Source of the DNA: Patescibacteria group bacterium
GTDB lineage: Bacteria > Patescibacteriota > Patescibacteriia > UBA9570
NCBI GenBank assembly: GCA_024277435.1
Contig: JAJRVJ010000024.1
Span: 276 to 64,275, forward strand
Direction: 5' to 3'
DNA: 64,000 bases
The notes under the pieces were generated by a model that did no database searches, was not told the origin of the DNA, and worked only from the letters and a program-made list of their open reading frames with translations. This document shows positions 700-63,454 of the stretch, in pieces (within the stretch, counting starts at the first letter, position 1; the number at the start of each line of letters is the position of its first letter). The position numbers were made by a program, and so were the translations under genes.

Positions 700-725
700 A
701 GACTAATCATAGCATAAAACTACCC

Positions 726-757
726 TTGACAAAAACAATACCATGCAGATGGATATA
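726..757 (+). promoter_or_regulatory. candidate sigma70-type promoter driving the GC-rich mini-gene
   Basis: Perfect TTGACA at 726-731 in AT-rich DNA immediately before the GC-rich block. The -10 is poor (GATATA/TGGATA about 17-20 nt downstream). An AGGAG motif lies upstream of the ATG at 780. Confidence 0.3.
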
Positions 758-779
758 CCACCCCAAGAGGAGATCTCCA

Positions 780-1053
780 ATGACCCCGATCGAGCAGATC
801 ACCGCCGAGAACGGCCACGACCGCGCCACCAGCGCGGAGCAGTGCTCCAGCGAAGAGATCAGTCAGCCCCAACACGGGCATCACCCTGGTCACCGATGGC
901 AATATCTCCGAAAATGGCAAGTTCATCACCGGAACCACCTACGTGGTGGCCTGGTGGAGCGGTGTGTGCGTGCACATCAGCTTCACACGCAACGCCGACA
1001 CCAAGGCCGTACTGGCCATCATCAAGGCCGGCGAGCCGAAGATGGCGGCCTAG
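780..1053 (+). pseudogene. GC-rich small foreign-like gene, apparently frameshifted near 866-880
   Basis: AGGAG plus ATG at 780 gives a protein-like MTPIEQITAENGHDRATSAEQCSSEEISQPQ. At the CCCC/GGG run (about 866-880) the protein-like reading moves to the +1 frame: ...NTGITLVTDGNISENGKFITGTTYVVAWWSGVCVHISFTRNADTKAVLAIIKAGEPKMAA, stopping at TAG 1051-1053. The other frames read His/Arg-rich junk typical of off-frame GC-rich DNA. Confidence 0.35.
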
Positions 1054-1079
1054 AGGCTGATCGAGTCTTACCTTCGACG

Positions 1080-1102
1080 CTACCAAATGAGGTAGTTTTT
1101 TT
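1080..1102 (+). terminator. candidate intrinsic terminator after the GC-rich mini-gene
   Basis: A ctacc-aaatga-ggtag hairpin followed by seven T. The stem is weak (5 bp). Confidence 0.35.
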
Positions 1103-1115
1103 ATTACCTATGCCA

Positions 1116-1691
1116 CTAACGCTGATACACAGCCATTAACTCGGCTTTGTCTAATACATGCCTTGCCATCGCCTCTTCAACTTCACTTATCGAGCTTCCA
1201 GATACATCTTCCACATCCAGCGCATATAGTTCGAAATAATATCGATGCTCTCCATCTGGCGGGCACGGACCACCCCAGGCTACTCTTCCAAAATCGTTCA
1301 TTACTTCAACGCCATTTTCTGGCACGCTATTCTCCTCCACTCCAGTAACAGAATCTGGGATATTTTTTACCACCCAATGTACCCACTCTTTATTTGGCGC
1401 ATCTGGATCGCGCATCACTAATACAAAACTTTGCGTACCTTCAGGAACATTACTCCAGTCCAGTTGCGGCGATACATCATTGCCATCACATGTAAATTGT
1501 TTCGGAATACTTTGCTCCGCTTGTATCGTTGGGCTGGTGAGTTGCATAGATGGTTGATAGTTATTACTTATCTCAAAAGCTTGGCGCCGAGCCAACGCAA
1601 CAAATACGGCCAATACCACTAACCCTAAAACACTGCCTATAGCCCTAGACGATACGGCTGGTCGCTGCTCAGCATTAGTATCATTACTCAT
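1116..1691 (-). CDS. YbhB/YbcL-type phosphatidylethanolamine-binding protein (PEBP) family protein
   Basis: The conserved core ...FVLVMRDPDAPN...WVHWVV...GGPCPPDGEHRYYFELYALD is typical of the bacterial PEBP/Raf-kinase-inhibitor-like family. The start is placed at the internal ATG (MSNDT...) so that it forms an ATGA overlap with the upstream gene's stop. Confidence 0.7.
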   Translation of the reverse strand: MSNDTNAEQRPAVSSRAIGSVLGLVVLAVFVALARRQAFEISNNYQPSMQLTSPTIQAEQSIPKQFTCDGNDVSPQLDWSNVPEGTQSFVLVMRDPDAPNKEWVHWVVKNIPDSVTGVEENSVPENGVEVMNDFGRVAWGGPCPPDGEHRYYFELYALDVEDVSGSSISEVEEAMARHVLDKAELMAVYQR

Positions 1692-2419
1692 ATTCCAACA
1701 ATTAAGTGCAGTACATACCCAATTATATACGATAGCCCTGCAGCTACACCTCCAATACCCGCCGTACCTAAGCCAGATAATAGCCAATGACTATCCGTAA
1801 AGCGGGATTTTACAGCCCCTACCGCAAACATAGCCAGCAATGTAAGTACAGACGCTACGTAAAATGTATTTACTTCCATAGTATCTAGAGATGATTGAAA
1901 TAGATAGGCTATCATTGGAATAAACCCAACAATATTAAAAGCCAAAAATGTTACTACAGCACTCTTCGTTGGAAAAATCGCTTCATCAAATACACCATGC
2001 TTATGCTTCATCATCATTTCCACCCATACATCATTATCGCTAGTAATTATCTTAGTAGCGCATTGTAAACACTCATCTTTAAAACCATTCCTTTTTAGAA
2101 TGTGCTCAATCGCATCCCGCTCCTTTTCTGGTGTAGCAGCAATGCTTTCATACTCCAGTCTACGCACTTTATCAATCCGTTCTAATTCCGCCTTATCACT
2201 AGAATATTTACCAGCGGCCATTGAAAAGCCATCGGCTATTAAATTCGCAAAGCCGAGAATAAGCACTACTGTTGTGGATAATTGTGCCCCCTGCACACCC
2301 GCAACAACAGCAAATGTAGTAACAGCGCCATCAATTCCTCCGTACACAAAATCACTTAACCCAACATAAACTGTTGCAATTACGTGCTTGTGATATGAAT
2401 TATCAGATGATTTTTTCAT
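1688..2419 (-). CDS. VIT1/CCC1-family (DUF125) iron/manganese transporter
   Basis: N-terminal YVGLSDFVYGGIDGAVTTFAVVAGV and the C-terminal TM bundle match the VIT1/CCC1 fold, with a central charged loop. The TGA stop overlaps the next gene's ATG (ATGA). Confidence 0.65.
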   Translation of the reverse strand: MKKSSDNSYHKHVIATVYVGLSDFVYGGIDGAVTTFAVVAGVQGAQLSTTVVLILGFANLIADGFSMAAGKYSSDKAELERIDKVRRLEYESIAATPEKERDAIEHILKRNGFKDECLQCATKIITSDNDVWVEMMMKHKHGVFDEAIFPTKSAVVTFLAFNIVGFIPMIAYLFQSSLDTMEVNTFYVASVLTLLAMFAVGAVKSRFTDSHWLLSGLGTAGIGGVAAGLSYIIGYVLHLIVGI

Positions 2420-2496
2420 AACTACCTATAGTATACAGAATAATTACATTTTGTTGAATTATACTCCGATCTGATGTACGCTGTATTATAGATATT

Positions 2497-3501
2497 ATGA
2501 AAGATATACTCAAACAAATTCCACTCATTAGCTCATTCGAGCGTCCATCCAGCGAGGAGCGAGAGCGCATTGAAGATAATATTCGTCAGCAATCGAAAGC
2601 AAACTTTAACTATTTTGTACTACTTATCATTTCAGCCGTTATTGTTGCACTTGGCTTAATTATCGATTCTGAAGCCACTATTATTGGTGGCATGTTAATT
2701 GCGCCACTATTCTGGCCAATTATTGCTCTTGCCCTAGGCATGATGGAAGGTAAAAAGATGATGCTAACTAACTCACTATCGGCCTTGGCTCGCTCGTTTA
2801 TAGTTATTTTCCTTATTGGTGCCTTAGTTGGATTAATTAGTCCATTCTCTAGCCTTAGTTCTGAAATTCTTGTACGCACAGAACCAACCATTTTTGAATT
2901 ACTTATTGCCATAGCTGCTGGATTAGGTGGTGGATTCACTACAATTTACTCCAAAAAATCTGGTGCTATATTTGGCGTAGCTGTAGCGGTAGCCTTAGTT
3001 CCACCAATTGCTGTAGCTGGCATTCTCATTAGTGATGGTGAAATGGAAAAAGCTATCGGAGCGTTATTGTTGTTTCTTACTAACTTCCTAGCCATTTTAC
3101 TAACATCAAGCTTCGTATTTTTAATAGGAAAATTCACTCGGGTAAACACAAAAACCGGTGAGGAGCGACGCAAAAAGGCCTTTAGTTGGGCTATTGGATC
3201 CTTTGTTATTATTCTTATCCCCATTCTTGCTCTATCATGGAATGCTATTAGCACAACTATTCGCCAAGAAAAAACCCAGGCCCTATTTGTTAAATCTTTC
3301 CCAGACAAAACCTTGAGCCAATTAGAAATTAATGAAGATCAATTTGATTATTCCATTAATGGAATCGTTCATCAAAGTGAAAATTTTGATTCTGATGAGC
3401 TTACCGCATTTACTCATCGCCTAAAGAAACTATTCAACAAGCCTGTGAAAGTAAATTTCAAGGTAATTGAATATGATATTGAAACAGTCTACGTCGATTA
3501 A
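2497..3501 (+). CDS. DUF389-family integral membrane protein
   Basis: Two internal repeats containing ...GGMLIAPLFWPIIALALG... and ...VAVALVPPIAVAGILIS..., as in the DUF389/TIGR00341 hydrophobic domain. Multiple TM helices. Confidence 0.55.
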   Translation: MKDILKQIPLISSFERPSSEERERIEDNIRQQSKANFNYFVLLIISAVIVALGLIIDSEATIIGGMLIAPLFWPIIALALGMMEGKKMMLTNSLSALARSFIVIFLIGALVGLISPFSSLSSEILVRTEPTIFELLIAIAAGLGGGFTTIYSKKSGAIFGVAVAVALVPPIAVAGILISDGEMEKAIGALLLFLTNFLAILLTSSFVFLIGKFTRVNTKTGEERRKKAFSWAIGSFVIILIPILALSWNAISTTIRQEKTQALFVKSFPDKTLSQLEINEDQFDYSINGIVHQSENFDSDELTAFTHRLKKLFNKPVKVNFKVIEYDIETVYVD

Positions 3502-3513
3502 CCTTTAGTGATT

Positions 3514-4556: not shown

Positions 4557-4562
4557 ACAGCC

Positions 4563-5303
4563 ATGCCAAAACACAAGGATAATCACTCAAATGAAGAAGC
4601 TCTAGTACATACCGATCATCTCAGTTTACGATATGGAGAGGTAGAAGTATTTTCAGACCTTTGCTTTACTATTAAACGGGGTTCGTTCACTAGTATTGTG
4701 GGCCCGAATGGAGCTGGAAAAACTCAATTAATGAAAACCATGCTTGGCTTAGTAGATGCATCGGAAGGTGTAATTATACGAAAATATGAACGCAGCGAAG
4801 TGGGTTACGTTCCACAAAAAATATTCATCGACCCAACCTTCCCTATAACGGTACGAGAATTTATGCAAGTATATTTACAACCAAAGAGCTTTTGGACTAA
4901 TACTTCATTGCCAGAATTTGATAACCAACTATCAATCGAACCGCTATTGCAAAAACAACTTGGCCGTTTATCAGGCGGACAATTGCAACGCGTGATATTA
5001 GCTGCAATATTAAGCACTAAACCATCAGTGTTATTTCTTGACGAGTTTTCAAGCGGCATTGATCCGCGTGGACAGGCCGAATTATATGGATATTTACATC
5101 GCTTGAACGAACGAGATGGGGTTACAATCATCATGATTTCACACGATATTGATATCACTACTCAATACGCCAACAGTGTACTGTGTTTGAATAAGCAAAT
5201 GGTATGCCAAGGGCAACCACATGATGTATTCACCGCAGAAAACTTTGAAAAAATGTACGGTATACCACTAACTAAGCTACAACGCCACAAACACCATGAT
5301 TGA
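4563..5303 (+). CDS. metal (Zn/Mn-type) ABC transporter ATP-binding protein, ZnuC-like
   Basis: Walker A GPNGAGKT, ABC signature LSGGQLQRV, Walker B LFLDEF. The small size and the ABC-3-type permease downstream indicate a ZnuC/MntA-like family. Confidence 0.85.
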   Translation: MPKHKDNHSNEEALVHTDHLSLRYGEVEVFSDLCFTIKRGSFTSIVGPNGAGKTQLMKTMLGLVDASEGVIIRKYERSEVGYVPQKIFIDPTFPITVREFMQVYLQPKSFWTNTSLPEFDNQLSIEPLLQKQLGRLSGGQLQRVILAAILSTKPSVLFLDEFSSGIDPRGQAELYGYLHRLNERDGVTIIMISHDIDITTQYANSVLCLNKQMVCQGQPHDVFTAENFEKMYGIPLTKLQRHKHHD

Positions 5304-6105
5304 TAACATCTTCACAGTTCTACAATTCCCCTTTATTCAAAGGGCATTATTGATTGGTTGTATTATTGGTGTTACCACCGCATTCCTTGGGTTATTTGTA
5401 ACCCTCCGCAACATGTCATTTTATTCCGATGCGATATCACATGCCGCTTTAGCTGGTATTGCAATTGGCCTACTACTTAATGTTGAACCATTTATTGCGG
5501 CAGTAGTATTTTGTTTACTTATTGGTTTAGGAACGGCCTTTGTAAAACAAAGGTCCAAAGTTTCCATTGATACATTAATGGGTGTGTTATTTGCTTCTGG
5601 CATATCACTAGGTATTGCCCTCATTAGTAAACAGCAGGGTTATCAAGGAGATTTATTCTCATTCCTATTCGGAGATATTCTGGCTACTAACTGGAATGAT
5701 ATTAGCATCGCCTTTGTGCTTGGATTAATTATTATTGTCTACCTACTGGGTAGTAGCAAACGACTACTCCTTACAACCTTCTCGCCAGACTTCAGCTTTG
5801 TACGTGGCGTATCTGCTCGCTTAACCGATTATATGTTCTTTGGTGCAACGGCGCTTACTATTGCATTGAGCATTAAGGTTATTGGAATTGTATTAGTAAC
5901 TGGTTTATTGATTATTCCTGCCGCCATTGGAAAAAATATGGCTCACTCATTCAAGCAAGCTGTATTATGGAGTATTCTCGCAAGTGTCTTCACTACAATC
6001 ATTGGAATTATCGCATCATACTATATCGATATTCCATCTGGTCCAGCTATCATTCTGTTAGGAACAATACTATTTGTTCTTACGTCACTATTCCAGCGTC
6101 GATAA
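5296..6105 (+). CDS. metal ABC transporter permease (ABC-3 family, ZnuB/MntB-like)
   Basis: About 8 TM helices with a typical ABC-3 permease profile. Overlaps the ATPase gene by 8 bp. No cognate substrate-binding protein gene is adjacent. Confidence 0.8.
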   Translation: MIDNIFTVLQFPFIQRALLIGCIIGVTTAFLGLFVTLRNMSFYSDAISHAALAGIAIGLLLNVEPFIAAVVFCLLIGLGTAFVKQRSKVSIDTLMGVLFASGISLGIALISKQQGYQGDLFSFLFGDILATNWNDISIAFVLGLIIIVYLLGSSKRLLLTTFSPDFSFVRGVSARLTDYMFFGATALTIALSIKVIGIVLVTGLLIIPAAIGKNMAHSFKQAVLWSILASVFTTIIGIIASYYIDIPSGPAIILLGTILFVLTSLFQRR

Positions 6106-6751
6106 GCGTTTGTGGAGTAACATCACCTAACTGCAAGGCGTCTTCTACTGAATAGTCGCCTATTTTAGTTCTGCGCAGTGCCGATAAATACGCACCGCAA
6201 CCAAGTACTTGACCAATATCATGCACTAATGAACGAATATACGTACCCTTACCACAATGCACGCGTATTGTAGCAATAGCATCTTTCACTGATAGTATTT
6301 CGATTTCATAAATAGAAACCACCCTATTAGGTAGCTTGATATCACCTACCCTACCTTCCCGTGCCAACTTATACAAACGCTGACCATTCACTTTAATTGC
6401 AGAGTATGCCGGAACGGTTTGTTCAATATCACCTGTAAACTGTGGCAATACTTCTTCGAGTTGTTCTTTGGTGATATTTGCAGGAAGTGCAGAAGTAGAA
6501 AGTTCACCCTCTGCATCATATGTAGTACTAGTAGCGCCAAATGTTATTTCCGCTATATATTCTTTATCCATTCCCATGAAGGAATCCTGTTGCCTTGTTT
6601 CACTTCTACCAACCAATATAATTAATAATCCAGTAGCTAATGGATCTAGTGTTCCTGAATGCCCTATTTTTTTGATGTTCAATTTTTTCCGCAATACAGC
6701 GATAACATCAAATGAAGTGTAATCAGTGGGCTTATCGATAAGTAACGGCAT
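6080..6751 (-). CDS. truB: tRNA pseudouridine(55) synthase
   Basis: N-terminal LIDKPTDYTSFDVIAVLRKKL...GHSGTLDPLATGLLI contains the catalytic-Asp motif of TruB. The length fits a TruB without a PUA extension. Confidence 0.9.
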   Translation of the reverse strand: MPLLIDKPTDYTSFDVIAVLRKKLNIKKIGHSGTLDPLATGLLIILVGRSETRQQDSFMGMDKEYIAEITFGATSTTYDAEGELSTSALPANITKEQLEEVLPQFTGDIEQTVPAYSAIKVNGQRLYKLAREGRVGDIKLPNRVVSIYEIEILSVKDAIATIRVHCGKGTYIRSLVHDIGQVLGCGAYLSALRRTKIGDYSVEDALQLGDVTPQTLIDAGIVT

Positions 6752-8328: not shown

Positions 8329-8596
8329 TATGGGGTATCATCCAATTTTTGATAGACGCTCGGAAAAAGAAAGCTGGGTGCGCAATCTTGGTCGCGGGCA
8401 CTACCCCCGCTTCCATTTATATATTAAAGGAACCTCAAATAACGTAACGTTAAGTTTGCATATGGATCAAAAAAAATCTGCGATAGAAATAAAAGGGGTT
8501 AAACGTCATGCAGGAGAATATGATGGCCTAGTTGTTGAAGAAGAAATGGAACGCATCAAGCGCTGGATTTATTACGCTTATACAAAAGCTCGTTAG
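8329..8596 (+). CDS. hypothetical small protein
   Basis: ORF following TPK, with the start placed at the internal ATG 8329 (MGYHPIFDRR...). No recognised motif. Confidence 0.3.
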
Positions 8597-8671
8597 GAAA
8601 ATTGTCTAAACAACCCGCCTACTATATACTGTAGCGATAAGAAATATACATAAATATAAACAAGTATACCT

Positions 8672-9319
8672 ATGAAACTATTTCTCGACACCGCCGAAGT
8701 AGAAGAAATCAAATTAGCCGCCGCTACCGGACTTATTGATGGCATTACTACTAACCCATCACTTATTGCAAAATCAGGACGTAATTTTGAAGAAGTTGTT
8801 AAAGAAATCACTACTATTGTTGATGGGCCAATCTCCGCAGAAGTAATTAGCACCGAAACTGATGCTATGTTGAAAGAGGGTCGTGCACTTGCCAAGATTC
8901 ATGAAAATATCACCGTAAAACTTCCAATGATAGAAGCTTCTATGCCGGTAGTTAAGCAACTTACAGCTGAAGGTATTAAAACGAACGTTACTCTAGTATT
9001 CTCTGTAAATCAGGCATTACTGGCTGCCAAAGCTGGTGCTACATTTGTTTCACCATTTGTAGGACGTTTAGACGACATCGGTGAAAATGGCATGAACTTA
9101 GTTGGTGACATTGTTCACCTATTTAACAACTATGGTTTCAAAACACAAATCTTGGCAGCATCAATTCGCCATCCGCATCATATTTATCAAGCAGCCGAAG
9201 CTGGCTCTCATATAGCCACTCTGCCGTATGGTATTTTTGAGAAACTCTTCAATCACCCACTTACCGATAAGGGGTTAGCGCAATTCCTTGAAGATTGGAA
9301 ATCTGTACCTAAAACGTAA
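8672..9319 (+). CDS. fructose-6-phosphate aldolase / Fsa-TalC-type transaldolase
   Basis: 215 aa: [14 protein letters not shown]...[11 protein letters not shown]...VKLP...TNVTLVFS...[13 protein letters not shown]. This is the canonical short transaldolase/Fsa family. Confidence 0.9.
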
Positions 9320-9328: not shown

Positions 9329-12300
9329 CTAAACTTCACCGCCAAGCTTATTTCCTGATACAATATATTCTTTAGCAGCTACTGAAGGATCCTGCTCTTC
9401 AACGACACTTCTCACAAGACGAGAGTTATCCTCAATAGCATTTAGTGCGCCACCACGATTCGCAAGATAGGCATAATTTGCATACGATACATCACTTAGG
9501 CTTAAACGATCCATATTTGGCAATAAGGTAAACTGCGTCCCACGCATATCAGCGTACGCTCCTTTAAATTGCTGCATAGTTTCGCTGCGTAAAAACGCTA
9601 TGGTATTTCCCTCTAACAGCAACGCGTCAGCCATTATTTCATCTTCGGTTCTTTCAATTCTCCCCTCCTTGGCTAACTGTAAACAAATCTGCACAAATGC
9701 ACCTTGGGTTTCTAGCTTTCCACGACCAGTTGCATTTTGTACAGCTAAATTATCAACATCTAACTCAACCGCCATATCCATCAAACCAACTTGCACTGCA
9801 CCAACCATGGTTTTTTCTGGACCACCATTATATGAGTTAGCAACCGCTAATATTTTAGCATCTTCACTATCCGCCAACGGATCACCAAAAGCACTTAAAT
9901 ACGTATCGATCACCACGCGATTTTCATGTAAGATGTGTGCTGCCACTTCCGTGTTTAACACTGGATCGGCTCGCAATTCAGTTTCCAGTTCATCAAACGA
10001 CATGCGACGTCCCAGCACCTCCTCCGTACTATTACGCTCACCATTTTCTTCAATTAAGTTAAAAGCGCGCACCTGAAATAATCCAGCTGAAGAAATACCC
10101 TCAACGGTTTCTAATTTACCTACAACCTTACCTAAGGCCTCATCGATTGGTGCAGCTACTACATCATTATATGTATCAATAATATCAGCCCCTAAACCTA
10201 CTTGATGCATAGCATCCGTAGCGCGGTGACTTTGAATACCTAATTCACCAAGTGCAATTGCCTTATCTAGTGCAGCAGCGGCCATTGGAGAATCATGAAT
10301 AGCCCAGGCAATATCTTTAGCCATTTGCCGACTAAACCATAAGTACTCCACTGTTTCAATTGTTATATCCATTGCCGCCACTAAACCAATATCACCAGCC
10401 TGTACATCTATACCAGCTTTATCTATAATCATCTGTGCTACGTGCTCACTCATATTCTCATATGGTTCAGCTACATTATCACGTACCCAAGCAATTGCCT
10501 GGCTACCATAGGTTTTATCAGCAACTTCACGCATACCCTCGTTGGCATATACTAAGGCAAGTGCTGCGCGTTCTGCTTCTCCGTACTCAGGATTACGATC
10601 AATTGCTCCATCAATTAACCAGCGCACTTCCGCATCAAGGGTTTCTTCAACCACACCATCTGCAGTGCGAATTGGCATAGTATCCGGCAAGTACACCCGG
10701 GCTTCCAAACGCTGATCTGTAATAACTCTATCAATGCTCGCTAAATCATCATTTGTATACTCAAGTACATCATCAGCTCGCAAACTATATTCAGTTGTTG
10801 TATATGGTGGCACATATTCACTGCCAGGCATCTGCACTTCCCGTGTAGTAACCAGCGGCGTACGCTCGGCTAACATACCACGAATTTGCCCCCACTCTTC
10901 CGTTGAATACCGAGAACGATCAAAGTATCTGGCAGATACTTCATTCATCGTTTCACCGGGTCGCACTAAATGCAGGTCGGGATTATCTGTAGCCACAGCC
11001 ATCTTCCGCTCTTCTAGAGCATAAATATCTTCAATGTTGGCCCGTAACGTTTCTGCATCATATATATGCACCAACTCACCTGGCCGAATGTGATCGGGAT
11101 CTACATAACCATCAGCGCGCATAGCATATACAGCTGCCATCCATAAATCACGTGGAAAATTCTGTTGTTCAAAAATCTTAGCCATTGTATCCCCTGCCTC
11201 TACTACATGAAATGTATCAACGGCATAATCACCACCTTCACCATGAAAGGCTAACGATTCATTCACAACTCCTGCGTTACCCTCCACGATTTCCACTGGA
11301 GTATACGTTCCTTTACGCACCATCATCGTTACTAAGCTATCGGCTACATTTCCACCATATCTGTGGTTAATCGCAATGTCATGCACTACTACTTCATCAC
11401 CTTGCTGCAGAGTCATAGTCTCCCAATCCTCTTGATTAGTAACCACGTTACCATTCACCTCAATGCCTAACTCTTCAAACAACCAACCACGTTGTGATAA
11501 ATCATCTCCATATACATCATACTCACGAGCTAAGTGCCGAGCCAATGTTGTATCTCGCACTACATCACTTACTAAATCCTTATCTCCATATAAATTAATC
11601 ACATGGTAATTCTCCGATCCACCCAAATCTTCATTGCGATCGATATACCCACGAATCTTCGTGTATTCATATTGAGCTGTGGCTTGCCGTAATGGCACGC
11701 GCGCTTCTTTGATCCATTCACCAACAGATTCACGATACTCGGCATCGCCATTCTCCAAACGCATGATTGGTCGTGTATCAGATCTATCATGATCGAAATA
11801 CTCACTTAGTGAAGCATATGATCTACCTCCAACCGATTCAGCGCCAGCTTCCCACATCGGAGCATGTACAACCACGCCAGATATATCACCTTTAGCATCA
11901 CGCAATGAAAAACCAAGGCTTGCCGCTAATTCCGAATCAAAATAATTTAATTGGCCAGCCGCAAATTTAGAACAATATTCGCCAGCCTTCACATTACTTA
12001 CAGGATTCTCCTGCATAAATCTCGCTAACGCTTGGTTGCGTTGCGACCACTGTTCTGGCTCAAAAGTTTCAGTCTCTACCTGAACTGGATCACCCTCTAC
12101 TTGAAAGACGCGTATAATTGGCCGCTGTTCACGAGCCATAAATTCATCTAAATCCATCGTAGAAATGCGCGAATCTTTCACGTTAAGCACAGTTGCAAAA
12201 CCATCAGCATCAACCTCTAACCGAACAACGTTCGAGTAATATACCGGCATTCTACCATCAGCCTTACCATGGCGCTCACCAAATACTAAACGGTACGTAC

Positions 12301-14056
12301 CTTGTGGTAAATCATGTAGATCTCCACGATCCACTAATGGTAAATACCCTTCAGGTCGTTCGCCTCTATCCACAGAACGCGCATCGCTACGCAATTCTTG
12401 AGCATCTTCTTCATCTATATCAAAGGGATCAACTTCAGCTTCATCTATGTACTCACCTGTTAACCCTGGAATACTCAATACTGTCTCACCCGGTATTATC
12501 AGTGTAGAATTACTCATGTCATTATCACGCTGAATTAATGCAACGGCTCCCGGAATAGAAAGTGTGAAATCTTGCTCTCGTATCTGATACATCGACAAAT
12601 TATCCCGAGCAATTCCCCATAATGTATCTCCACCTTGCACAATATATTCAACTGTTGCAACTCCTTGTGCATTCTCAACAAATCCTAATGTTGGATCTAC
12701 ATCCACTTGCGACTCCTCAGGAATTTCGTCTAGTTCAGCAAACTCTATTTCAATTTCATCTACCGGTACAGATACGGCCGCCTCAATTGCTACTTGCGTT
12801 TCGGCGCGCGCTCCACCAATAACATCAAGTAGTGCTCGGCTACTATGCATGGCTAATGCTACTTGCGGCTCGGTTGGCAATTGTTCGAATAGATCTTGAT
12901 CTACCGTTACCACTGATGGATCAATTCTACCACCAGAAGCATGCTCCAATACTACGCCAATACTACTACGCACCCGAGTAACTTCCTCAATAGCCATATC
13001 CACATTACCTAAAATACTCAACGCCGTAATATTTACATTATATTGATTATATAAATGTCCAGCTTGTTGAGCGACGCTACGAATTTGTTTTTTATGTAAA
13101 TCTAAAATGCGCGTTTTTAATAAATATGCCACTTCCTTACGCCTGCTTAATAACTCTCGCTCCGCGATTGTTTCTACTTGATCATATAACCACGCCTCAT
13201 CTAAACCTTTCGCTGTTAATTCAGATTGATATTTTTCTAATAATGAGGCAGTTAGACCATCTACATCGAATAGTTCATTTGTTGCAGATTCTTGATCTTC
13301 AGAAATTAATGTCTCTACCAAAATATCTACATTCGCAACAGCAGCACGAGTTTCACGAAAATTATCTGTCATCAACATCGAAGCCATCGCCTCTTTTACT
13401 CCACGCCCGAATGCACGCATGCGCTCTACTCCCGTGCGTTGTTCAGCAGAAAGTTCAGTAAGTTGTTGTGTGTAATTTGATTCCAACGATGCCTTGGCCG
13501 ACATCGCTCGAGATACAACATACGATTCCAAACCAAAGGTACTAAGGCTAGCAACCGATCGAATCAACGAATGATTGCGGGCCTTACGTTTTTGATACAC
13601 ATCAACATGCTTTTTAATCATACCGCGCACGGCTGGAGCATATCCTCTTCCTAAACGATCCCACTTGCGCATCATACTAGGCCGTGATGGATCGTATACT
13701 GTTGTATCTAAATATGTTTCTAAGTCACCTAAAATCTTTTCTTTAGCCTGCTCTGATAAATTTGTTGCACCAATTAAATTACTAGCATATACAACTCCCT
13801 CTCTAATTTTTTTCTGTCTAAACTCCTCTCGTGCCTCAGCAGTTTCACCTGGTAAGTCATTTTCCATAGTATCACCCAATGCTTCAAAATGCGTGCGTAC
13901 CTGATCTGCAAAATTCATGGCCTGTCGCTCAATACGACGAACTCCACCATGAGCGTTATAGCTTTTTTCTAGCTCCGCATACTCAATAGCTTTTACCGCA
14001 AAATCTGCAAACGTATAACGAGCCGCCATGGCTGCACTAAATTCAAGTGGTCGCAA
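9329..14056 (-). CDS. giant (1575 aa) LysM-domain protein with a C-terminal lytic-transglycosylase-like region
   Basis: LysM-like segments (ATVEYIVQGGDTLWGIARDNLSMY and DTFHVVEAGDTMAKIFEQQNFP). C-terminal ...ILAVANSYNGGPEKTMVGAVQVGLMDM resembles an SLT-domain AYNAG motif. No signal peptide. The first codon is TTG. Confidence 0.65.
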   Translation of the reverse strand: MRPLEFSAAMAARYTFADFAVKAIEYAELEKSYNAHGGVRRIERQAMNFADQVRTHFEALGDTMENDLPGETAEAREEFRQKKIREGVVYASNLIGATNLSEQAKEKILGDLETYLDTTVYDPSRPSMMRKWDRLGRGYAPAVRGMIKKHVDVYQKRKARNHSLIRSVASLSTFGLESYVVSRAMSAKASLESNYTQQLTELSAEQRTGVERMRAFGRGVKEAMASMLMTDNFRETRAAVANVDILVETLISEDQESATNELFDVDGLTASLLEKYQSELTAKGLDEAWLYDQVETIAERELLSRRKEVAYLLKTRILDLHKKQIRSVAQQAGHLYNQYNVNITALSILGNVDMAIEEVTRVRSSIGVVLEHASGGRIDPSVVTVDQDLFEQLPTEPQVALAMHSSRALLDVIGGARAETQVAIEAAVSVPVDEIEIEFAELDEIPEESQVDVDPTLGFVENAQGVATVEYIVQGGDTLWGIARDNLSMYQIREQDFTLSIPGAVALIQRDNDMSNSTLIIPGETVLSIPGLTGEYIDEAEVDPFDIDEEDAQELRSDARSVDRGERPEGYLPLVDRGDLHDLPQGTYRLVFGERHGKADGRMPVYYSNVVRLEVDADGFATVLNVKDSRISTMDLDEFMAREQRPIIRVFQVEGDPVQVETETFEPEQWSQRNQALARFMQENPVSNVKAGEYCSKFAAGQLNYFDSELAASLGFSLRDAKGDISGVVVHAPMWEAGAESVGGRSYASLSEYFDHDRSDTRPIMRLENGDAEYRESVGEWIKEARVPLRQATAQYEYTKIRGYIDRNEDLGGSENYHVINLYGDKDLVSDVVRDTTLARHLAREYDVYGDDLSQRGWLFEELGIEVNGNVVTNQEDWETMTLQQGDEVVVHDIAINHRYGGNVADSLVTMMVRKGTYTPVEIVEGNAGVVNESLAFHGEGGDYAVDTFHVVEAGDTMAKIFEQQNFPRDLWMAAVYAMRADGYVDPDHIRPGELVHIYDAETLRANIEDIYALEERKMAVATDNPDLHLVRPGETMNEVSARYFDRSRYSTEEWGQIRGMLAERTPLVTTREVQMPGSEYVPPYTTTEYSLRADDVLEYTNDDLASIDRVITDQRLEARVYLPDTMPIRTADGVVEETLDAEVRWLIDGAIDRNPEYGEAERAALALVYANEGMREVADKTYGSQAIAWVRDNVAEPYENMSEHVAQMIIDKAGIDVQAGDIGLVAAMDITIETVEYLWFSRQMAKDIAWAIHDSPMAAAALDKAIALGELGIQSHRATDAMHQVGLGADIIDTYNDVVAAPIDEALGKVVGKLETVEGISSAGLFQVRAFNLIEENGERNSTEEVLGRRMSFDELETELRADPVLNTEVAAHILHENRVVIDTYLSAFGDPLADSEDAKILAVANSYNGGPEKTMVGAVQVGLMDMAVELDVDNLAVQNATGRGKLETQGAFVQICLQLAKEGRIERTEDEIMADALLLEGNTIAFLRSETMQQFKGAYADMRGTQFTLLPNMDRLSLSDVSYANYAYLANRGGALNAIEDNSRLVRSVVEEQDPSVAAKEYIVSGNKLGGEV

Positions 14057-15120: not shown

Positions 15121-16107
15121 ATGTCTTTACCAAAACCAAAAAAAAAACAATTTTATAAACGCTGGTGGTTCTGGACACTACTAGTACTAGGTACCATTAT
15201 TGTAGTAGCTGTTGTTGCCGGCCTTAGCGCTTATCAAGAATCTCAACGCGAAGCCTACGCCTATTTAGAAGAAACTGTTTCTGTAGAAAAACGCGTCCTG
15301 AATAAAACAATTAGCACGGATGGCGAAATTACTCCTGAACAACACACTCAACTATATACAAGCCTACCTAATAGCAAAATTACCGAAGTAAATGTAACTG
15401 TTGGTGATGAAGTAACTGTTGGTGATGTTCTTATAAAGACCGATGGTGGCCCTGCGCCAGATGAAGAAATTGAAGCACCGTTCGATGGCAGAGTTCTAGC
15501 GGTACACACATTTGTTGGTGATGTGCCTTCGCTTGCAATTCCGGTAATAGAAATTGGCTATCGCACAAACCATATTGAATTTCTTGCATCAGAATCTGAA
15601 GTAATCGACCTCAATGAAGGTCAGCACGTTACAATCACTATTCCATCATATGAAAATGGTGATGATGAGTACGATGGGAAAGTAACATTTGTGGATGTAC
15701 AAAAACAAACTATAGCATCTTCAGCTGCAAGTGGTGCGGTTGCAGAATCTGGTTACGTTATACATGTAAATGCAGATGATCTTCCAGAAGCTGTGCGTAA
15801 TATTATTGGTATTAGCGTTGATGTAGTGGTAGATATTTACGAAACCGAATCCGTGTTATCTATTGAGCCAAGCGCTATTCAGTATGATGATAACGATGAA
15901 GCCTTTGTGTATATACCGCCAGTAGTGGATGATACATTTATTGCTGAGGCAACTGTCGCAGAAGATGTAACCGATGTATTACAACAAAAAGAGGTAGAGG
16001 TTGGATTTAAAGGTGATGAATACTATGAAATCACTGACGGCCTACGAGATAACGAAAATGTACTACTATATATTCCGTCAAATAGTGGGGCTGGAGGATT
16101 ATTCTAG
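15121..16107 (+). CDS. HlyD-family periplasmic adaptor (membrane fusion) protein, MacA/YknX-like
   Basis: N-terminal TM anchor, then lipoyl/barrel-sandwich-like repeats (VTVGDEVTVGDVL...APFDGRVLAV). Upstream of the ABC ATPase and FtsX-type permease. Confidence 0.75.
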   Translation: MSLPKPKKKQFYKRWWFWTLLVLGTIIVVAVVAGLSAYQESQREAYAYLEETVSVEKRVLNKTISTDGEITPEQHTQLYTSLPNSKITEVNVTVGDEVTVGDVLIKTDGGPAPDEEIEAPFDGRVLAVHTFVGDVPSLAIPVIEIGYRTNHIEFLASESEVIDLNEGQHVTITIPSYENGDDEYDGKVTFVDVQKQTIASSAASGAVAESGYVIHVNADDLPEAVRNIIGISVDVVVDIYETESVLSIEPSAIQYDDNDEAFVYIPPVVDDTFIAEATVAEDVTDVLQQKEVEVGFKGDEYYEITDGLRDNENVLLYIPSNSGAGGLF

Positions 16108-16114
16108 AAACACT

Positions 16115-16816
16115 ATGACTAAACACACAACAAAGGAACAAGACGATCCATTAATTGAAGTGCATAAACTTACTAAAACCTACTGGAATGGTGATATACC
16201 AATCCGTGCGGTGCGCGGTGTAAACCTCACTATTAAAGAAGGTGATTTTATAGCCTTGATGGGGCCATCAGGTTCAGGCAAATCCACATTTATGAATTTG
16301 TTAGCCTTTTTAGATGCGCCAAGTTCTGGGCGCTATATATTTAGTGGTAGCGACATTAAAGATTTTGATGATGACTATCTAGCTGAACTGCGTAATGCGG
16401 TAATAGGATTTGTATTTCAGCAATTTCATTTACTACCACGTACTAGCGCTCTAGATAATGTTGCTCTACCTATGCTGTATGCTGGTATTCGTAAACGTAG
16501 AGCTCGTGAACATGCTTACGAGATGTTAAAGAAAGTAGGCTTAGAAGATCGTATTTATCATAAGCCAAACGAACTATCTGGCGGTCAGCAACAGCGTGTT
16601 TCCATTGCTCGCGCCTTAATAAATGAACCAAAAGTGATTTTCTGTGATGAACCAACTGGAAACCTTGATTCAAAAACATCTATTGAAATTATGGATATCT
16701 TAAAAAAGCTTCATAAAGAAGGTAAAACGCTTATTATGGTTACACATGAACCTCACATAGCTAAATACGCCAGCCGCACCATTTATATGAAAGACGGTAG
16801 CATATCACAATCATGA
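16115..16816 (+). CDS. ABC transporter ATP-binding protein, MacB/LolD/YknY-like
   Basis: Walker A GPSGSGKST, Q-loop, signature LSGGQQQRVSIARAL, Walker B VIFCDEPTGNLD. Start placed at the internal ATG 16115. Confidence 0.9.
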   Translation: MTKHTTKEQDDPLIEVHKLTKTYWNGDIPIRAVRGVNLTIKEGDFIALMGPSGSGKSTFMNLLAFLDAPSSGRYIFSGSDIKDFDDDYLAELRNAVIGFVFQQFHLLPRTSALDNVALPMLYAGIRKRRAREHAYEMLKKVGLEDRIYHKPNELSGGQQQRVSIARALINEPKVIFCDEPTGNLDSKTSIEIMDILKKLHKEGKTLIMVTHEPHIAKYASRTIYMKDGSISQS

Positions 16817-29206: not shown

Positions 29207-29355
29207 AGATATGCATTATAGCATATTCTAAGACCTCACCCATAATCTCGACCCATCCCCTTACAGGAGAGGGATTATTGACGCATATTCCCCGTCTCCT
29301 GAAAGGAGAAGGGGTTAGGGGAAAAGGTCGAGACTAGGGATTGGGTGAGGTTTTT

Positions 29356-41169: not shown

Positions 41170-41189
41170 AATTATTACTATTTGATGAG

Positions 41190-48028: not shown

Positions 48029-48821
48029 CTTCTTTTATCTCTTCAGTAAGATTAGTATCCTCTTCAACTCCATTAACACCATCAATTCCAGATTGCTCAC
48101 GAGCTTTTTTAAGCTGATCTTTAATTTCCTTCTGCAAGCTACTGTACGCTCCTACACCAGCATAGCGCTCTCCATTAATAAATAACGTTGACGTGGATTG
48201 CACCTCAGCTGCATCACCCTCATTCACATCTTCTTGTACTATTGCTCGCTGCTCGTGCTTATCTAAGCATGCTTCAAATGCATCGGTATCATATTCTAAC
48301 TCTGCCACATATCCCTTAAACAAGTCTTCAGTCTGCTTTGATGTCGCCTGGCTAGCCCATACATCCTGTTCTTCAAATAATTTATCATGATATGTCCAGA
48401 ACGCATCGTTACCTTCATTAGCGAATACACATTGCCCTGCTTCTGCAGCAATAAATGCATATTTGTGTATATTCACTGGTAATGGAAAATCGTTATATAC
48501 CACTGAAATATCATCGCCAAACTCTTCAACAGCTTGCCTTAACTGCGGGGCCATTTTTAAACAAGCTGGACATTCAAAATCGCTGTATTCTTCAATAACA
48601 ACTAATGGATCACTACCGCCTTTTGTAGGATCATCACTTACACCTTGTGTAGGAGTACCATCTGGGCTTACCGCCGCTTTAATAACCCACACCAATACAA
48701 TAACTACTATAATAACAATACCTACCACGACAGCTTTTTGAGTACTTTCAGTAGTATCAGTTTTTTTAGGCTTGTTCGTAGCTTGCTTACCACCTTTTTT
48801 ACTTAGTGATTTTTCTCCCAT
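48003..48821 (-). CDS. membrane-anchored DsbA/BdbD-like thiol:disulfide oxidoreductase (paralog 4)
   Basis: Basic N-terminus, a TM helix, then YSDFECPACLKMAP (CPAC) in a DsbA-like thioredoxin fold. Confidence 0.7.
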   Translation of the reverse strand: MGEKSLSKKGGKQATNKPKKTDTTESTQKAVVVGIVIIVVIVLVWVIKAAVSPDGTPTQGVSDDPTKGGSDPLVVIEEYSDFECPACLKMAPQLRQAVEEFGDDISVVYNDFPLPVNIHKYAFIAAEAGQCVFANEGNDAFWTYHDKLFEEQDVWASQATSKQTEDLFKGYVAELEYDTDAFEACLDKHEQRAIVQEDVNEGDAAEVQSTSTLFINGERYAGVGAYSSLQKEIKDQLKKAREQSGIDGVNGVEEDTNLTEEIKEDGSIEEVN

Positions 48822-59872: not shown

Positions 59873-60652
59873 ATGACAATATCTATTAATGGAACATTTG
59901 TTGATTCAATACAGCTCACTGGTAATGAGCCAGAATTTGCTGCCGGCTACGGTGTATTTGAAACACTGCGCACGTACGCAGAAAAACCATTCGAACTTCC
60001 AGCTCACCTACGTCGTCTATACAGCTCTGCGGATGATATAAAACTTGCTATTAACTCTTCAAATGAAGATATCACGCAATGGGTAGAACAACATTGTGAA
60101 ACGCAAGTTGATAAAAAAATAAAAATCATTGCTGCTCCTGAAAAAATATATGTACTCTCAGAACCTCTTGCTATTGATGAAGCTGTGTATACAAACGGAG
60201 TTGGCGTACGGCTCTATCATTTAGAACGGCGGTCACCATCGATAAAAAGTTTATCATATCGGGAAGAATACTTAGCAAATCACATTGCTAAAACCGAAGG
60301 TTATCACGATGCCTTATTAATTGATGAAAAAAAAGAAGTGCGTGAAGGAGCGCACTCCAATTTCTTTTTTGTGAGGGATAATGTGATTCATACCAGCAAA
60401 CATAGAATCCTCCAGGGTATCACCCGGCGTGTTACGTTGGCCATTGCCGAACCCCACTATCAACTAGAACTCAACCGGATGTTTTTAGACACCGTAATGT
60501 TAGCCGATGAATGCTTTCTTACGCAATCTACCTACGGCGTTGTACCAGTAACCCGCATAGATAATCATACAATTGGCAATGGTGCGCCAGGAAGCATTAC
60601 ACAAAACGTGATGGACTTATTTAACGACTATGTCGCACAAAGCAATAATTAA
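59873..60652 (+). CDS. pabC: aminodeoxychorismate lyase / class IV aminotransferase-fold protein
   Basis: Fold-type IV PLP enzyme (...GYGVFETLRTY...). Called PabC because it lies between pabB and folP. Confidence 0.7.
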   Translation: MTISINGTFVDSIQLTGNEPEFAAGYGVFETLRTYAEKPFELPAHLRRLYSSADDIKLAINSSNEDITQWVEQHCETQVDKKIKIIAAPEKIYVLSEPLAIDEAVYTNGVGVRLYHLERRSPSIKSLSYREEYLANHIAKTEGYHDALLIDEKKEVREGAHSNFFFVRDNVIHTSKHRILQGITRRVTLAIAEPHYQLELNRMFLDTVMLADECFLTQSTYGVVPVTRIDNHTIGNGAPGSITQNVMDLFNDYVAQSNN

Positions 60653-61481
60653 CACCATCAAGCGCAATTCCCCTGTTCTTATGGGTGTGTTGAATGTTAC
60701 ACCCGATTCATTTTCGGATGGTGGAAAATATACTTCTACCAAAGCGGCTGTGCAGCAAGCTATATCCATGACAGAATCTGGCGCATACATTATTGATATT
60801 GGTGGTGAATCTTCCCGGCCTGGTGCTAAGCCGGTTTCGGAAGAAGAGGAAATGAAACGAGCACTTCCGGTGATTAAAGCGTTGATTAATCGTAGAGACG
60901 CGATTAATCGCGTCTCTACGTCGAAACAATGGTATATTTCTATAGATACATACAAGCCAGCCGTGGCTGAAGCTGCTCTGCTGGCTGGTGCGAATATCGT
61001 AAACGATATTACTGGTTTACAGAATGCACAAATGCGTAGCGTAGTTGCTAAATACAATTGCCCGGTTGTGTTAATGCATATGTTAGGTACACCACAAACT
61101 ATGCAAAAACAACCAAGGTACACTAACGTTGTTCAAGATATAACCAACTTCTTTAAACAACAAATACTATTAGCAAAGCAAGCTGGCATCAAGCGCGAAC
61201 AAATTATTCTTGATCCAGGAATTGGCTTTGGAAAAACCCTGAATCATAATTTAAAAATTCTACGTAACATCTCTCAATTCGAGAAACTCAAACTTCCGAT
61301 ATTAATTGGTGCCTCGCGTAAATCGATGATTGAAAAAATCACTGGTGCAAAAACTGAAGATCGCCTACCTGGAACACTGGCGCTTCATTTATGGGCTACC
61401 CAACAAGGCGCTGATATATTACGTGTACATGATGTAGCCGAACATACCCAGGCGCTAAAGATTCAGGAAAAATTACATTAA
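60630..61481 (+). CDS. folP: dihydropteroate synthase
   Basis: VLMGVLNVTPDSFSDGG...IIDIGGESSRPGA...DTYK... are the canonical DHPS motifs. Confidence 0.9.
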   Translation: MSHKAIINTIKRNSPVLMGVLNVTPDSFSDGGKYTSTKAAVQQAISMTESGAYIIDIGGESSRPGAKPVSEEEEMKRALPVIKALINRRDAINRVSTSKQWYISIDTYKPAVAEAALLAGANIVNDITGLQNAQMRSVVAKYNCPVVLMHMLGTPQTMQKQPRYTNVVQDITNFFKQQILLAKQAGIKREQIILDPGIGFGKTLNHNLKILRNISQFEKLKLPILIGASRKSMIEKITGAKTEDRLPGTLALHLWATQQGADILRVHDVAEHTQALKIQEKLH

Positions 61482-62405: not shown

Positions 62406-62472
62406 AGGTATTTTTATATATATTTGATGAATATTAATTACCTAAATACTATATCACAAAATATATTTTACC

Positions 62473-62501
62473 TTGACTAGTTATCAATAATTCCTTAATG
62501 T
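62473..62501 (+). promoter_or_regulatory. candidate sigma70 promoter reading into GC-rich cassette 1
   Basis: TTGACT (62473-62478), a 17-nt spacer, then TAATGT (62496-62501). The module cttgacta...aatgtt recurs at 62905-62936. Confidence 0.4.
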
Positions 62502-62741
62502 TTCATCACACTATTCTAGTGCAGAACCACAGCTAGAGGTGGACATGAACTCTAAAGTCAACACTTCCTCCAACCGGCGCGGCTCCAAGGGCTGGCGCCG
62601 GCGAGCAAGAGCTGTGCAAGTGCACTGAGTGCGGCAAGCACTTCAAGCCCTACGTCGGCTCCAGCAGACAGGGAGGCTGGGGACTCTAGGAGCCTGGAAG
62701 TTCTGCACTAAAACAAGCTCACGTACAAACCATCGCACGTG

Positions 62742-62824
62742 AGCAGGAGGAACAACGACCCCAACGACATCAGCCCATTCAAGCTGATGTCGTTGGGGTC
62801 GTGTTTCATTTACACGATTTTTTA
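62742..62824. repeat. 83-bp direct repeat copy 1 (AGGAGG + perfect 18-bp hairpin + T-run)
   Basis: agcaggaggaacaacGACCCCAACGACATCAGCccattcaaGCTGATGTCGTTGGGGTCgtgtttcatttacacgatttttta. Identical to 63372-63454 except for 3 nt inside the 3' stem arm. Confidence 0.85.
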
Positions 62825-62906
62825 TGCCTTTATCTAAGAATAAATCAATGATCTATCCTTACAATATATAATTACCGAATAATAAATAATACAACAACTA
62901 TATTTC

Positions 62907-62934
62907 TTGACTAAGTACAATATTGCATTACAAT
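62907..62934 (+). promoter_or_regulatory. candidate sigma70 promoter reading into GC-rich cassette 2
   Basis: TTGACT (62907-62912), a 16-nt spacer, then TACAAT (62929-62934). A similar module lies upstream of cassette 1. Confidence 0.35.
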
Positions 62935-62974
62935 GTTCTCACCCAATCATTGGGAGTAACCCAGGAGACATCGT

Positions 62975-63365
62975 GCAACGACCACCTATCACCCTGTCCA
63001 ACGTTCCGCTGATTACCGGGCACTCCTGCCCCAGCTGCCAGCGGACCACGAACGAGACGCTCAGCCTGTTCGGTACCGCAGACGACAAGCTCGCCGAACT
63101 GTTCACCTGCAACCACTGCGGCGCTCTCTACCGGCATACCATGCCGGCGAACTGGAAACCGCGCGTGGACACGATGCCCACGGCGCCGGACGACCGCACC
63201 TGCGGCCACACCAACTGCGGCGTACGACCACGGTCTCGGTACATCATCGGGCGTCATACCACCATGGGCTTCAAGGCGCTGATGTGCTGCAGTGCGTGCC
63301 AGCGGTACTCGATCCTGCCGCGCAAGCTACCGGACACCATGCCGCTGCTGGAACCTCGGCGCTGA
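62975..63365 (+). CDS. GC-rich small protein with two CxxC pairs (zinc-ribbon-like), hypothetical
   Basis: GGAG then GTG at 62975 (the ORF track gives an ATG at 62907 in AT-rich DNA). CPSC...x24...CNHC, and a second cluster CGHTNC...CCSAC. Visibly GC-rich. Followed 7 bp later by 83-bp repeat copy 2. Confidence 0.4.
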
Positions 63366-63371
63366 TCTCCC

Positions 63372-63454
63372 AGCAGGAGGAACAACGACCCCAACGACAT
63401 CAGCCCATTCAAGCTGATGTCCGCGGGGTCGTGTTTCATTTACACGATTTTTTA
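63372..63454. repeat. 83-bp direct repeat copy 2
   Basis: Same sequence as 62742-62824 with cgtt changed to ccgc in the 3' stem arm, which weakens the hairpin in this copy. Confidence 0.85.

Follow-up and report, generated by a model that had tools for sequence, protein, structure and literature searches.

We analysed a 64,000-nt stretch of DNA from a Patescibacteria group bacterium (GenBank assembly GCA_024277435.1, contig JAJRVJ010000024.1, positions 276 to 64,275), here called the window; all coordinates follow its forward-strand numbering. Three loci in it carry genes far richer in guanine plus cytosine (GC) than their surroundings. The largest of them, island 2, is an operon beside lgt that encodes a 562-residue membrane protein (the big protein) and a small membrane partner, and it is the main subject of this work. 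We scored GC outliers in 300-nt windows and took the windows outside the flagged loci as the background (GC 0.401, standard deviation 0.032, maximum 0.507). The mean GC of the whole stretch is 41%, and that of host non-coding DNA 36%. The initial annotation had pointed to such outliers from the letters alone. When computed, they proved real and large, and uniform GC was not seen: unit 1 (780-1053) has a GC of 0.624 (z 7.0), island 2 (29345-32190, minus strand) 0.606 (z 6.4), unit 3a (62505-62824) 0.541 (z 4.4) and unit 3b (62940-63454) 0.614 (z 6.7). The same annotation described three loci, each with a promoter, a jump in GC and a closing hairpin. This architecture is real; the count, however, is four transcription units, the third locus being made of two in tandem (3a and 3b).

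The GC content at third codon positions (GC3) is 0.76-0.92 in the units compared with 0.24-0.33 in the neighbouring host genes of the window. Since the GC periodicity at the third position is strong, all four segments are real coding sequence. The middle locus also shows plus-strand open reading frames (ORFs) of 494 and 248 residues, which are antisense by-products of the codon bias of the minus-strand genes. The orientation of this locus had to be amended: its genes are read on the minus strand, from a promoter region at about 32.2-32.6 kb to a terminator at 29370-29411. An adenine depletion of the kind left by diversity-generating retroelements was also considered and ruled out, as the A/T skew of the coding strand is inconsistent between the units.

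GC rises at the predicted start of transcription, no more than about 30 nt from a sigma-70-like promoter, and the GC-rich stretch ends at a hairpin terminator. The 60 nt ahead of the -35 box have 15-27% GC and the first 30 nt past the promoter core 47-57%; by position +96 the value is 63-68%. Transcribed non-coding parts have 48-57% GC, while the spacers before and between 3a and 3b have 16-22% (15-22% for promoter spacers). The architecture recurs in two related assemblies, in which comparable units show the same GC profile across the promoter. These are L001 (JAUYKW010000021, an independent contig of a metagenome-assembled genome with about 35% GC), with a unit at 15875-16190, and L005 (GCA_054403235.1, with flanks of 40-46% GC), with units at 5255-6590 and 8580-9100. 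In L005 the first of these holds a MopE-type metal-binding protein and a 162-residue protein with a lipobox-like N-terminus, and the second is a separate 138-residue orphan on the opposite strand; each has a TTGAC-type box and hairpins.

The -35 and -10 boxes, described as good at every locus, vary in quality: they match 10 of 12 consensus positions at unit 3b, read TTGACT-17-TAATGT at unit 3a and are perfect at 32550-32578 upstream of island 2, but unit 1 has a good -35 and no good -10. The motif CTTGACW occurs four times in the window, compared with 12.7 expected, and three of the four lie upstream of small GC-rich units. A recurrent promoter module (cttgact...aatgtt) was nevertheless rejected: it is present at 62473 and 62907 only, and in an alignment of 3a with 3b the promoters share boxes at the consensus level alone, the common part being the 83-nt terminator. 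This 83-nt hairpin element, which the initial annotation had proposed to look for behind each GC outlier, has just two copies in the window, one behind 3a and one behind 3b. There it provides the strong 3' hairpin that was described for each unit; unit 1 ends in a weak hairpin and island 2 in an 11-bp stem of its own.

The coordinates of the island 2 operon are given in Table 1. Its distal promoter is kept as TTGACA-17-TATTCT in L001 and as TTGACA-17-TATTAT in L005, and an AT-rich stretch of 330 nt (32220-32549) that carries ATGCAC boxes follows it. The layout of this region is preserved in three genomes (window 32220-32600, minus strand; L001 1100-1420; L005 1958-2240), with a near-perfect sigma-70 promoter first and two to three (TT)ATGCAC boxes on the same strand in each genome. 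These boxes may be operators or protein-binding sites. The big gene is preceded by a structured leader of about 230 nt. As the arm CATCGATCTGCCT is common to the leader hairpins A and B, the two are mutually exclusive. Hairpin B is kept in the window, in L001 and in two further relatives, L003 and L004, which are short contigs of 58-59% GC with AT-rich ends. In a pairing test with these four sequences, 92% of the cells of hairpin B were paired compared with 34-50% for slid partners, and two compensatory pairs were seen, a result that is not statistically significant. The arms of hairpin A, read by eye, appear to covary between the window and L001.

The leader thus resembles riboswitch and attenuator leaders in being a conserved 5' region with two mutually exclusive hairpins in front of a membrane-protein operon. 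It differs from them in that neither hairpin is followed by the U-tract of a terminator, covariation is statistically unsupported in the four sequences, and no Rfam match reached the gathering score in the leader, where matches were at chance level and far short of it, or elsewhere in the window. We regard it as a candidate new cis-regulatory RNA.

The big protein has a polytopic N-terminal half, a soluble C-terminal half and a Gly-rich tail. Its partner has positional equivalents in L001, L004, L005 and in a fourth relative, L006 (60% GC, no AT-rich end), with sequence similarity nearly lost. The intrinsic terminator is near-identical in L004 and covaries in L003. Past this terminator, before the NHL-repeat gene begins, lies a further GC-rich multi-hairpin of about 117 nt (29234-29350), which folds at -60.9 kcal/mol (z -7.0) on the minus strand and contains small hairpins of the CCTGAAAGG type. 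The islands of L003, L004 and L005 have similar hairpins at their ends, and the multi-hairpin could be an insulator or an element like the repetitive extragenic palindromic (REP) sequences. Beside the island in L004, a partial ORF (3250-3420) looks by eye like a REP-associated or IS200-type tyrosine (RAYT) transposase; it had no Pfam match at E <= 0.001, and this assignment is tentative.

L001 was found by a search with the NHL-repeat protein. It is syntenic with the window over 7.7-33.6 kb at 48-71% protein identity, and between lgt and the NHL gene it has a 2.4-kb island of 60% GC. This island encodes a small membrane protein and a homologue of 519 residues that is 31% identical to the big protein (E 9e-45). 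In L005, a DsbA-like gene and lgt are followed by a stretch of 60-70% GC with a big gene, a 236-residue membrane protein and then a second unit, which encodes a MopE-motif protein and a lipoprotein-like protein. The order DsbA-like, lgt, big gene, small membrane gene therefore holds in all three genomes. Lgt of the window is 61% identical to that of L001 and 53% to that of L005; for the big protein the figures are 31% and 26%.

This synteny bears on the suspicion that GC-rich fragments of another organism had been joined to an AT-rich contig during assembly or binning. The source is indeed a metagenome-assembled contig, and errors in the consensus could account for the broken frames of units 1 and 3a. 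At the main locus, however, co-assembly of a contaminant is excluded by the homologous operon at the same DsbA-lgt junction in the independent L001 and L005, and L003 and L004 have AT-rich edges. Moreover, the units start just past the promoter, have a well-spaced ribosome-binding site and end at the terminator, unlike random joins, and the window has a 27-nt palindrome in common with L003. For the units as a whole, we consider such an artefact extremely unlikely, though it is less firmly rejected for the small units than for the main locus.

Next, we compared synonymous sites. At four-fold degenerate sites under identical amino acids, the third-base identity between members equals the expectation from composition (e.g. 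0.34 compared with 0.33), which means that synonymous sites have turned over completely. All six members of the family nevertheless have a GC3 of 0.70-0.85, with 3-11% of A-ending codons. In the classical picture of amelioration, acquired islands with atypical GC decay toward the composition of the host. Since the sites are saturated and GC3 is still 0.70-0.85 in every member, a donor signature that has not yet decayed cannot explain the high GC, and the ongoing or recent arrival that had been suggested is contradicted at this locus. The high GC at the lgt-adjacent locus is a local equilibrium. The protein has diverged more than the non-coding ends: L003 and L004 are 36-38% identical to the window in the protein, yet near-identical to it in the leader hairpin and the terminator.

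We then folded the transcripts in 120-nt windows, using as controls dinucleotide shuffles and shuffles of synonymous codons, in which protein sequence, codon usage and the GC pattern of period 3 stay unchanged. The mean minimum free energy of the operon is -42 to -54 kcal/mol per 120 nt, compared with -21 to -29 in host genes. Against dinucleotide shuffles, the big genes, partner genes, leader and 3' untranslated region (UTR) gave z of -1.2 to -2.9 in the window, L003, L004, L005 and L006; L001 gave -0.6 for the big gene and -1.5 for the partner gene, and nine host genes -0.6 to +0.06. In the window, the mRNA of the partner gene has a z of -2.6 to -2.9, and the 3' UTR span 29345-29561 has a mean z of -2.5. 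At the level of whole genes, the shuffles of synonymous codons gave z of -2.7 to -6.7, compared with -2.0 to +1.0 for host genes. The sense strand was more structured than the antisense strand in five of five genes tested. High GC alone is not the source of this excess structure, because three other GC-rich genes show none (unit 3b 0.04, the MopE-like gene of L005 +0.41, a 77-residue gene of L001 +0.45).

Gene classes with high GC3 are known within single genomes, for instance in grasses (PMC2895627). The likeness to these, and to local selection on mRNA structure, is that a subset of genes has far higher GC3 and folds better than its synonymous shuffles. The differences lie in the extreme GC3 (0.85 compared with 0.25), in z of -1.5 to -3 over whole transcripts, in the extension into the UTRs and in the restriction to a few bacterial units.

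A GC-biased process acting locally on the DNA would be another way to reach such an equilibrium, either as GC-biased gene conversion (gBGC) at recombination hotspots, through natural transformation of fast-evolving envelope genes, or as a transcription-coupled AT-to-GC bias. It would fit the high equilibrium GC3 in all lineages despite saturation, the GC enrichment of UTRs and spacers, and the fast protein divergence with its signs of allele exchange; the match between boundaries and transcription unit would suit a transcription-coupled process. A GC3 shift of 50-60 points is, to our knowledge, far beyond any gBGC effect in bacteria. The adjoining and intervening promoter spacers of 15-22% GC would also have to resist it, and the excess of structure over matched shuffles, with sense above antisense, would be left unexplained. 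We consider it improbable.

The family itself is very small. HMMER, run exhaustively against 1.84 billion representative proteins, gave six true members only; a seventh match, a repeat protein with E 3e-5, was judged spurious. AT-rich flanks or contig ends are seen in five of the six members, the exception being L006, which is GC-rich over its whole length, and none of the six lies in a GC-rich genome. A word-indexed search with the big protein and exact look-ups of the window proteins gave no match, and neither did DNA and protein BLAST of the island against phages and plasmids. Scans of viral, JGI metagenome and GTDB genome collections gave no match to the family, to the leader motif or to the 83-nt element. 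For the window units, searches of 1.8-5.8 billion proteins brought up no homologue from a GC-rich genome, a phage, a plasmid or a viral contig, so that no donor was found for the foreign DNA assumed at first. The GC-rich proteins had no match in Pfam, PHROGs or PADLOC, except for a MopE-type motif in one L005 gene. In the literature, we found no description of such a phenomenon and no paper citing the related accessions. The operon establishes a membrane-protein family that is new and very rare, and its structured leader is conserved.

As for function, the operon has DsbA-like and Lgt neighbours, and in L005 also a lipoprotein-like protein and a metal-binding secreted protein, which suggests a role in the envelope. 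The big and partner membrane proteins, as judged from their sequence and gene context, probably have an envelope function. The arrangement is reminiscent of the operons of SPFH/stomatin and NfeD proteins, with a membrane-anchored protein whose C-terminal region has beta structure and then a long helix, followed by a small membrane partner. It differs in that the SPFH/Band_7 family (PF01145) matched just one of the six members, with E 0.002 and below the Pfam gathering score, and not the window protein; a profile search of the PDB with the big protein gave E 0.27 or worse, which is insignificant. The assignment was not borne out. AlphaFold models of the big protein had a predicted local distance difference test score of 52 at full length and 50 for the C-terminal half, too poor to compare.

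Taken together, we favour the reading that the main unit is a resident, ancient, lineage-specific envelope operon, whose transcript would be GC-rich by selection on the RNA. We hold it tentatively, at a little short of an even chance. The GC-rich segments would be autonomous transcription units of the organism itself, and their composition would belong to the transcript and not to freshly imported DNA. Each has a predicted sigma-70-type promoter in extremely AT-rich DNA and is GC-rich from the predicted start to the hairpin terminator. The operon transcript of about 2.8 kb is far more paired than expected from its composition or codon usage, and the orthologues agree in this. Selection on mRNA structure or stability would then hold the high GC at a maintained equilibrium, and the outcome may be a very stable, RNase-resistant and/or translation-gated mRNA, regulated by the leader hairpin switch and the ATGCAC-box region. 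The small units have the same architecture, and 3b looks inserted by recombination at the 83-nt terminator element; we infer their link to the big operon.

Several observations weigh against this reading. The promoters, transcription starts and terminators are consensus predictions, and the comparative claims rest on six sequences, three of them from contigs of 2.6-3.4 kb. The folding z-scores are calibrated on shuffles and host genes, not on genes of true high-GC organisms. Unit 3b lacks excess structure, and in units 1 and 3a there are too few windows for significance. The small units have no homologues and hence no sign of old age. In the tree of the big protein, L001, L005 and L006 form one group and the window, L003 and L004 another, in conflict with the flanking genes; allele exchange or greatly differing rates would account for this, and exchange leaves room for a horizontal GC-rich gene pool. 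Finally, the third-base usage (C > G >> T > A) and the GC-rich UTRs fit an ordinary gene of an organism with 62-65% GC.

The last two points also speak for an unsampled pool of GC-rich genes, such as GC-rich relatives, a GC-rich plasmid or virus of the lineage or a physically associated GC-rich bacterium. Alleles from it would repeatedly replace each other in situ at lgt, and cassettes would be inserted elsewhere, so that the donor GC never decays. The composition of codons and UTRs does look like genuine high-GC DNA, and the small units are orphans that differ between the window and L001, two of them decaying. Moreover, 83-nt direct repeats surround 3b, as a Campbell-type event or the insertion of a cassette would leave them, the window encodes a ComEC competence channel, and the L005 island has in its third gene a metal-binding motif of the MopE type, from a family that is common in GC-rich bacteria. 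Such a pool is, however, hard to reconcile with the lack of a homologue in the GC-rich genomes, phages, plasmids and viral contigs searched. The AT-rich promoter region, the leader and the terminator are conserved along with the GC-rich body, and the GC boundaries are transcript ends and not arbitrary recombination points. The excess of sense-biased mRNA structure would be left unexplained. The amino-acid composition is only half-shifted: Gly, Ala, Arg and Pro (GARP) make up 0.29-0.36 of the residues in the big-protein family and Phe, Tyr, Met, Ile, Asn and Lys (FYMINK) 0.19-0.25, with a GC of 0.59 at first codon positions. This usage is intermediate, unlike that of a native gene of a 65% GC organism. 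We consider the gene pool possible, though rather unlikely.

The GC-rich units can also be compared with genomic islands acquired by horizontal gene transfer (HGT). They resemble these as sharp compositional outliers with unlike codon usage and orphan ORFs. No donor, integrase or tRNA target was seen here, the window holding no tRNA, and there are no flanking repeats except for the 83-nt pair around 3b. A composition that has not equilibrated is expected of such islands, whereas island 2 has saturated sites and a GC3 of 0.70-0.85. Its boundaries are those of a transcript. Its locus is syntenic in relatives, with GC3 unchanged past saturation, which the amelioration model does not predict.

The small units differ from the main operon in several respects. 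In unit 1, the phase of GC3 switches at a +1 frame break around 860-870, at a CCCC run (867-870), with GC3 of 0.90 and 0.86 in the two halves. With the frame restored it encodes a 90-residue orphan; the deposited annotation has a frameshifted ORF of 119 residues (P0008) instead. Unit 3a has a similar +1 break at about 62597-62600 and, once restored, encodes an orphan of about 47 residues with a CxCxxC motif. CCC-C is a known slippery motif. Programmed +1 frameshifting was set aside, since unit 1 breaks at CCC-C and unit 3a has no comparable site, and we treated both breaks as indels or assembly errors. The protein of unit 3b is Cys-rich and zinc-ribbon-like, with several CxxC pairs, and also an orphan. 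None of the three small units had a homologue in the protein searches or a family assignment in Pfam, PHROGs or PADLOC.

Table 1. Positions of the predicted elements of the four GC-rich units in the window
Feature	Position	Strand	Description
Unit 1, -35-like box CTTGACA	726-731 (box 725-731)	+	convincing -10 absent; 27% GC in the 60 nt upstream
Unit 1, coding region	780-1053	+	62% GC; ATG at 780, GAGGAG ribosome-binding site, TAG stop at 1051-1053
Unit 1, terminator-like site	1079-1103	+	weak 6-bp hairpin and T7; z -1.4
Island 2, distal promoter TTGACA-17-TATAAT	32550-32578	-	perfect; just downstream of lgt, about 590 nt upstream of the big gene
Island 2, proximal CTTTGACAA box	32214-32219	-	kept in the window, L001 and L005; poor -10
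Island 2, leader hairpin A	32125-32174	-	3' arm CATCGATCTGCCT doubles as 5' arm of hairpin B
Island 2, leader hairpin B	32058-32135	-	78-nt nested three-helix stem-loop (TCGATCT / GCCTACC / GCAAGGGT ...)
Island 2, big gene	30275-31963	-	562 residues; GC3 0.85
Island 2, spacer hairpin	30224-30264	-	perfect 13-bp GC hairpin between the big and partner genes
Island 2, small partner gene	29562-30116	-	184 residues, about 4 transmembrane segments; GC3 0.92
Island 2, 3' UTR	29412-29561	-	150 nt, structured; 57% GC over 29345-29561 including the terminator
Island 2, intrinsic terminator	29370-29411	-	GGCCCGTGAAC...GTTCACGGGCC then TTTTGCTTTT (29369-29358); 11-bp stem and T-run
Unit 3a, promoter TTGACT-17-TAATGT	62473-62501	+	in DNA of 15% GC
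Unit 3a, coding region	62545-62689	+	ATG at 62545; TAG stop at 62687-62689
83-nt element, copy 1	62742-62824	+	19-25-bp hairpin, then U-rich tail; terminator of 3a
Unit 3b, promoter TTGACT-16-TACAAT	62907-62934	+	10/12; in DNA of 20% GC
Unit 3b, coding region	62973-63365	+	GTG start after AGGAGA; 130 residues; GC3 0.82
83-nt element, copy 2	63372-63454	+	96% identical to copy 1; -36.1 kcal/mol

The first copy of the 83-nt element folds at -45.7 kcal/mol (z -9.5). The two copies have four differences, which are clustered at GTCCGCGGGG and GTCGTTGGGG, respectively. Because they bracket unit 3b as direct repeats and their differences are clustered, unit 3b looks inserted by recombination at this element; unit 3b together with one copy measures 630 bp. 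This is reminiscent of integron cassettes, with unrelated small ORFs in tandem, each followed by a near-identical palindrome of about 80 nt. The differences are that the window ORFs scanned include no integrase, each unit has its own promoter and there are two copies only. By eye, the 83-nt element also lacks the unpaired bases and core sites of attC and is a near-perfect hairpin with a U-tract.

Comparable units occupy different places in L001 and L005, and that of L001 also differs from those of the window, which means that the small units turn over. Our best reading is that all three are orphan, moron-like cassettes with fast turnover, two of them frame-disrupted, and they could be recent acquisitions, decaying genes or genes with assembly errors.

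A moron is defined by its own promoter and terminator and by a GC content unlike that of its neighbours, as in gene 15 of phage HK97 (PMC3594210; Cumby et al. 2012). By this definition, the units could be morons of a phage, or what is left of an integrative element with promoters of its own, and such a source had been proposed for all three loci. The predicted promoters and terminators and the GC content of the window units agree with it. So do the small ORFs of unknown function, sometimes in tandem (3a and 3b, and two units in L005). Morons, however, reside in phages or prophages. Here, neither the GC-rich proteins nor their unknown neighbours matched a PHROG family, 50,697 phage records and IMG/VR gave no DNA or protein match, and about 65 window ORFs that were scanned include no integrase, transposase or phage gene, the neighbours all being housekeeping genes. 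A moron is also extra DNA absent from relatives, whereas the main unit, island 2, has kept its junction in L001 and in L005 and is syntenic across genera. It has an equilibrium composition, not the decaying signature of a donor, and a hyper-structured mRNA. The small units come closest to morons here, but in a window with no phage context. We regard a phage or integrative-element origin of the units as very improbable, less firmly so for the small units than for the main one.

Apart from the GC-rich units, the window is ordinary chromosome, with genes for pentose-phosphate enzymes, fructose-bisphosphate aldolase, enzymes of the folate pathway, GlmS, ComEC, a release factor, TruB, Fur, a MacB/HlyD pump, several DsbA-like proteins, Lgt and QueG. 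The nearest match with a name was to a Saccharibacteria metagenome-assembled genome, at 23-36% identity. The DsbA-like thioredoxin genes number at least four and are dispersed (33425-34195, 43453-44969, 48003-48821). Transketolase is split into two genes (40180-42050), with the N-terminal part at 41190-42050 and the pyrimidine-binding and C-terminal part at 40180-41169. A 1575-residue ORF with a TTG start (9329-14056) has a weak LysM match only; its R/(R+K) of 0.71 is fairly high for the genome and its GC3 of 0.31 is host-like. At the equivalent junction, L001 has the small GC-rich unit at 15875-16190 instead.

The palindrome that the window has in common with L003 is TAGAGACGCGATTAATCGCGTCTCTAC, a perfect 27-nt palindrome at 60893-60921. 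It lies in frame within the ORF of dihydropteroate synthase (Pterin_bind, 60630-61481). The same 27-mer stands at the start of L003 (1-27), and a variant, GTAGAGACGC...GCGTCTCTAC, at the start of L004 (2-30). It looks like an element of the REP type or of the Rickettsia palindromic element type that is common to these genomes and able to enter coding sequence.

A GC content unlike that of the genome is routinely taken as a sign of recent horizontal transfer or of contamination, and such segments are often filtered from metagenome bins. At the syntenic locus described here, a GC3 of about 0.8 persists past synonymous saturation in a genome with a GC3 of about 0.25. The lgt-adjacent operon might be the founding example of a new class of genes in bacteria, whose transcripts selection would keep GC-rich and densely paired over their whole length, from the leader through coding regions and spacer to the 3' UTR, inside an AT-rich genome. 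We consider this generalization possible, though rather unlikely. If it were true, composition would be a selected, gene-specific trait, and calls of HGT or contamination by composition would mislabel such genes. The mRNAs of the class would be compositionally insulated and unusually long-lived or translation-gated, with the small cassettes as its newer members. The organism would then provide a natural test of how the GC content and structure of an mRNA affect its stability and translation.

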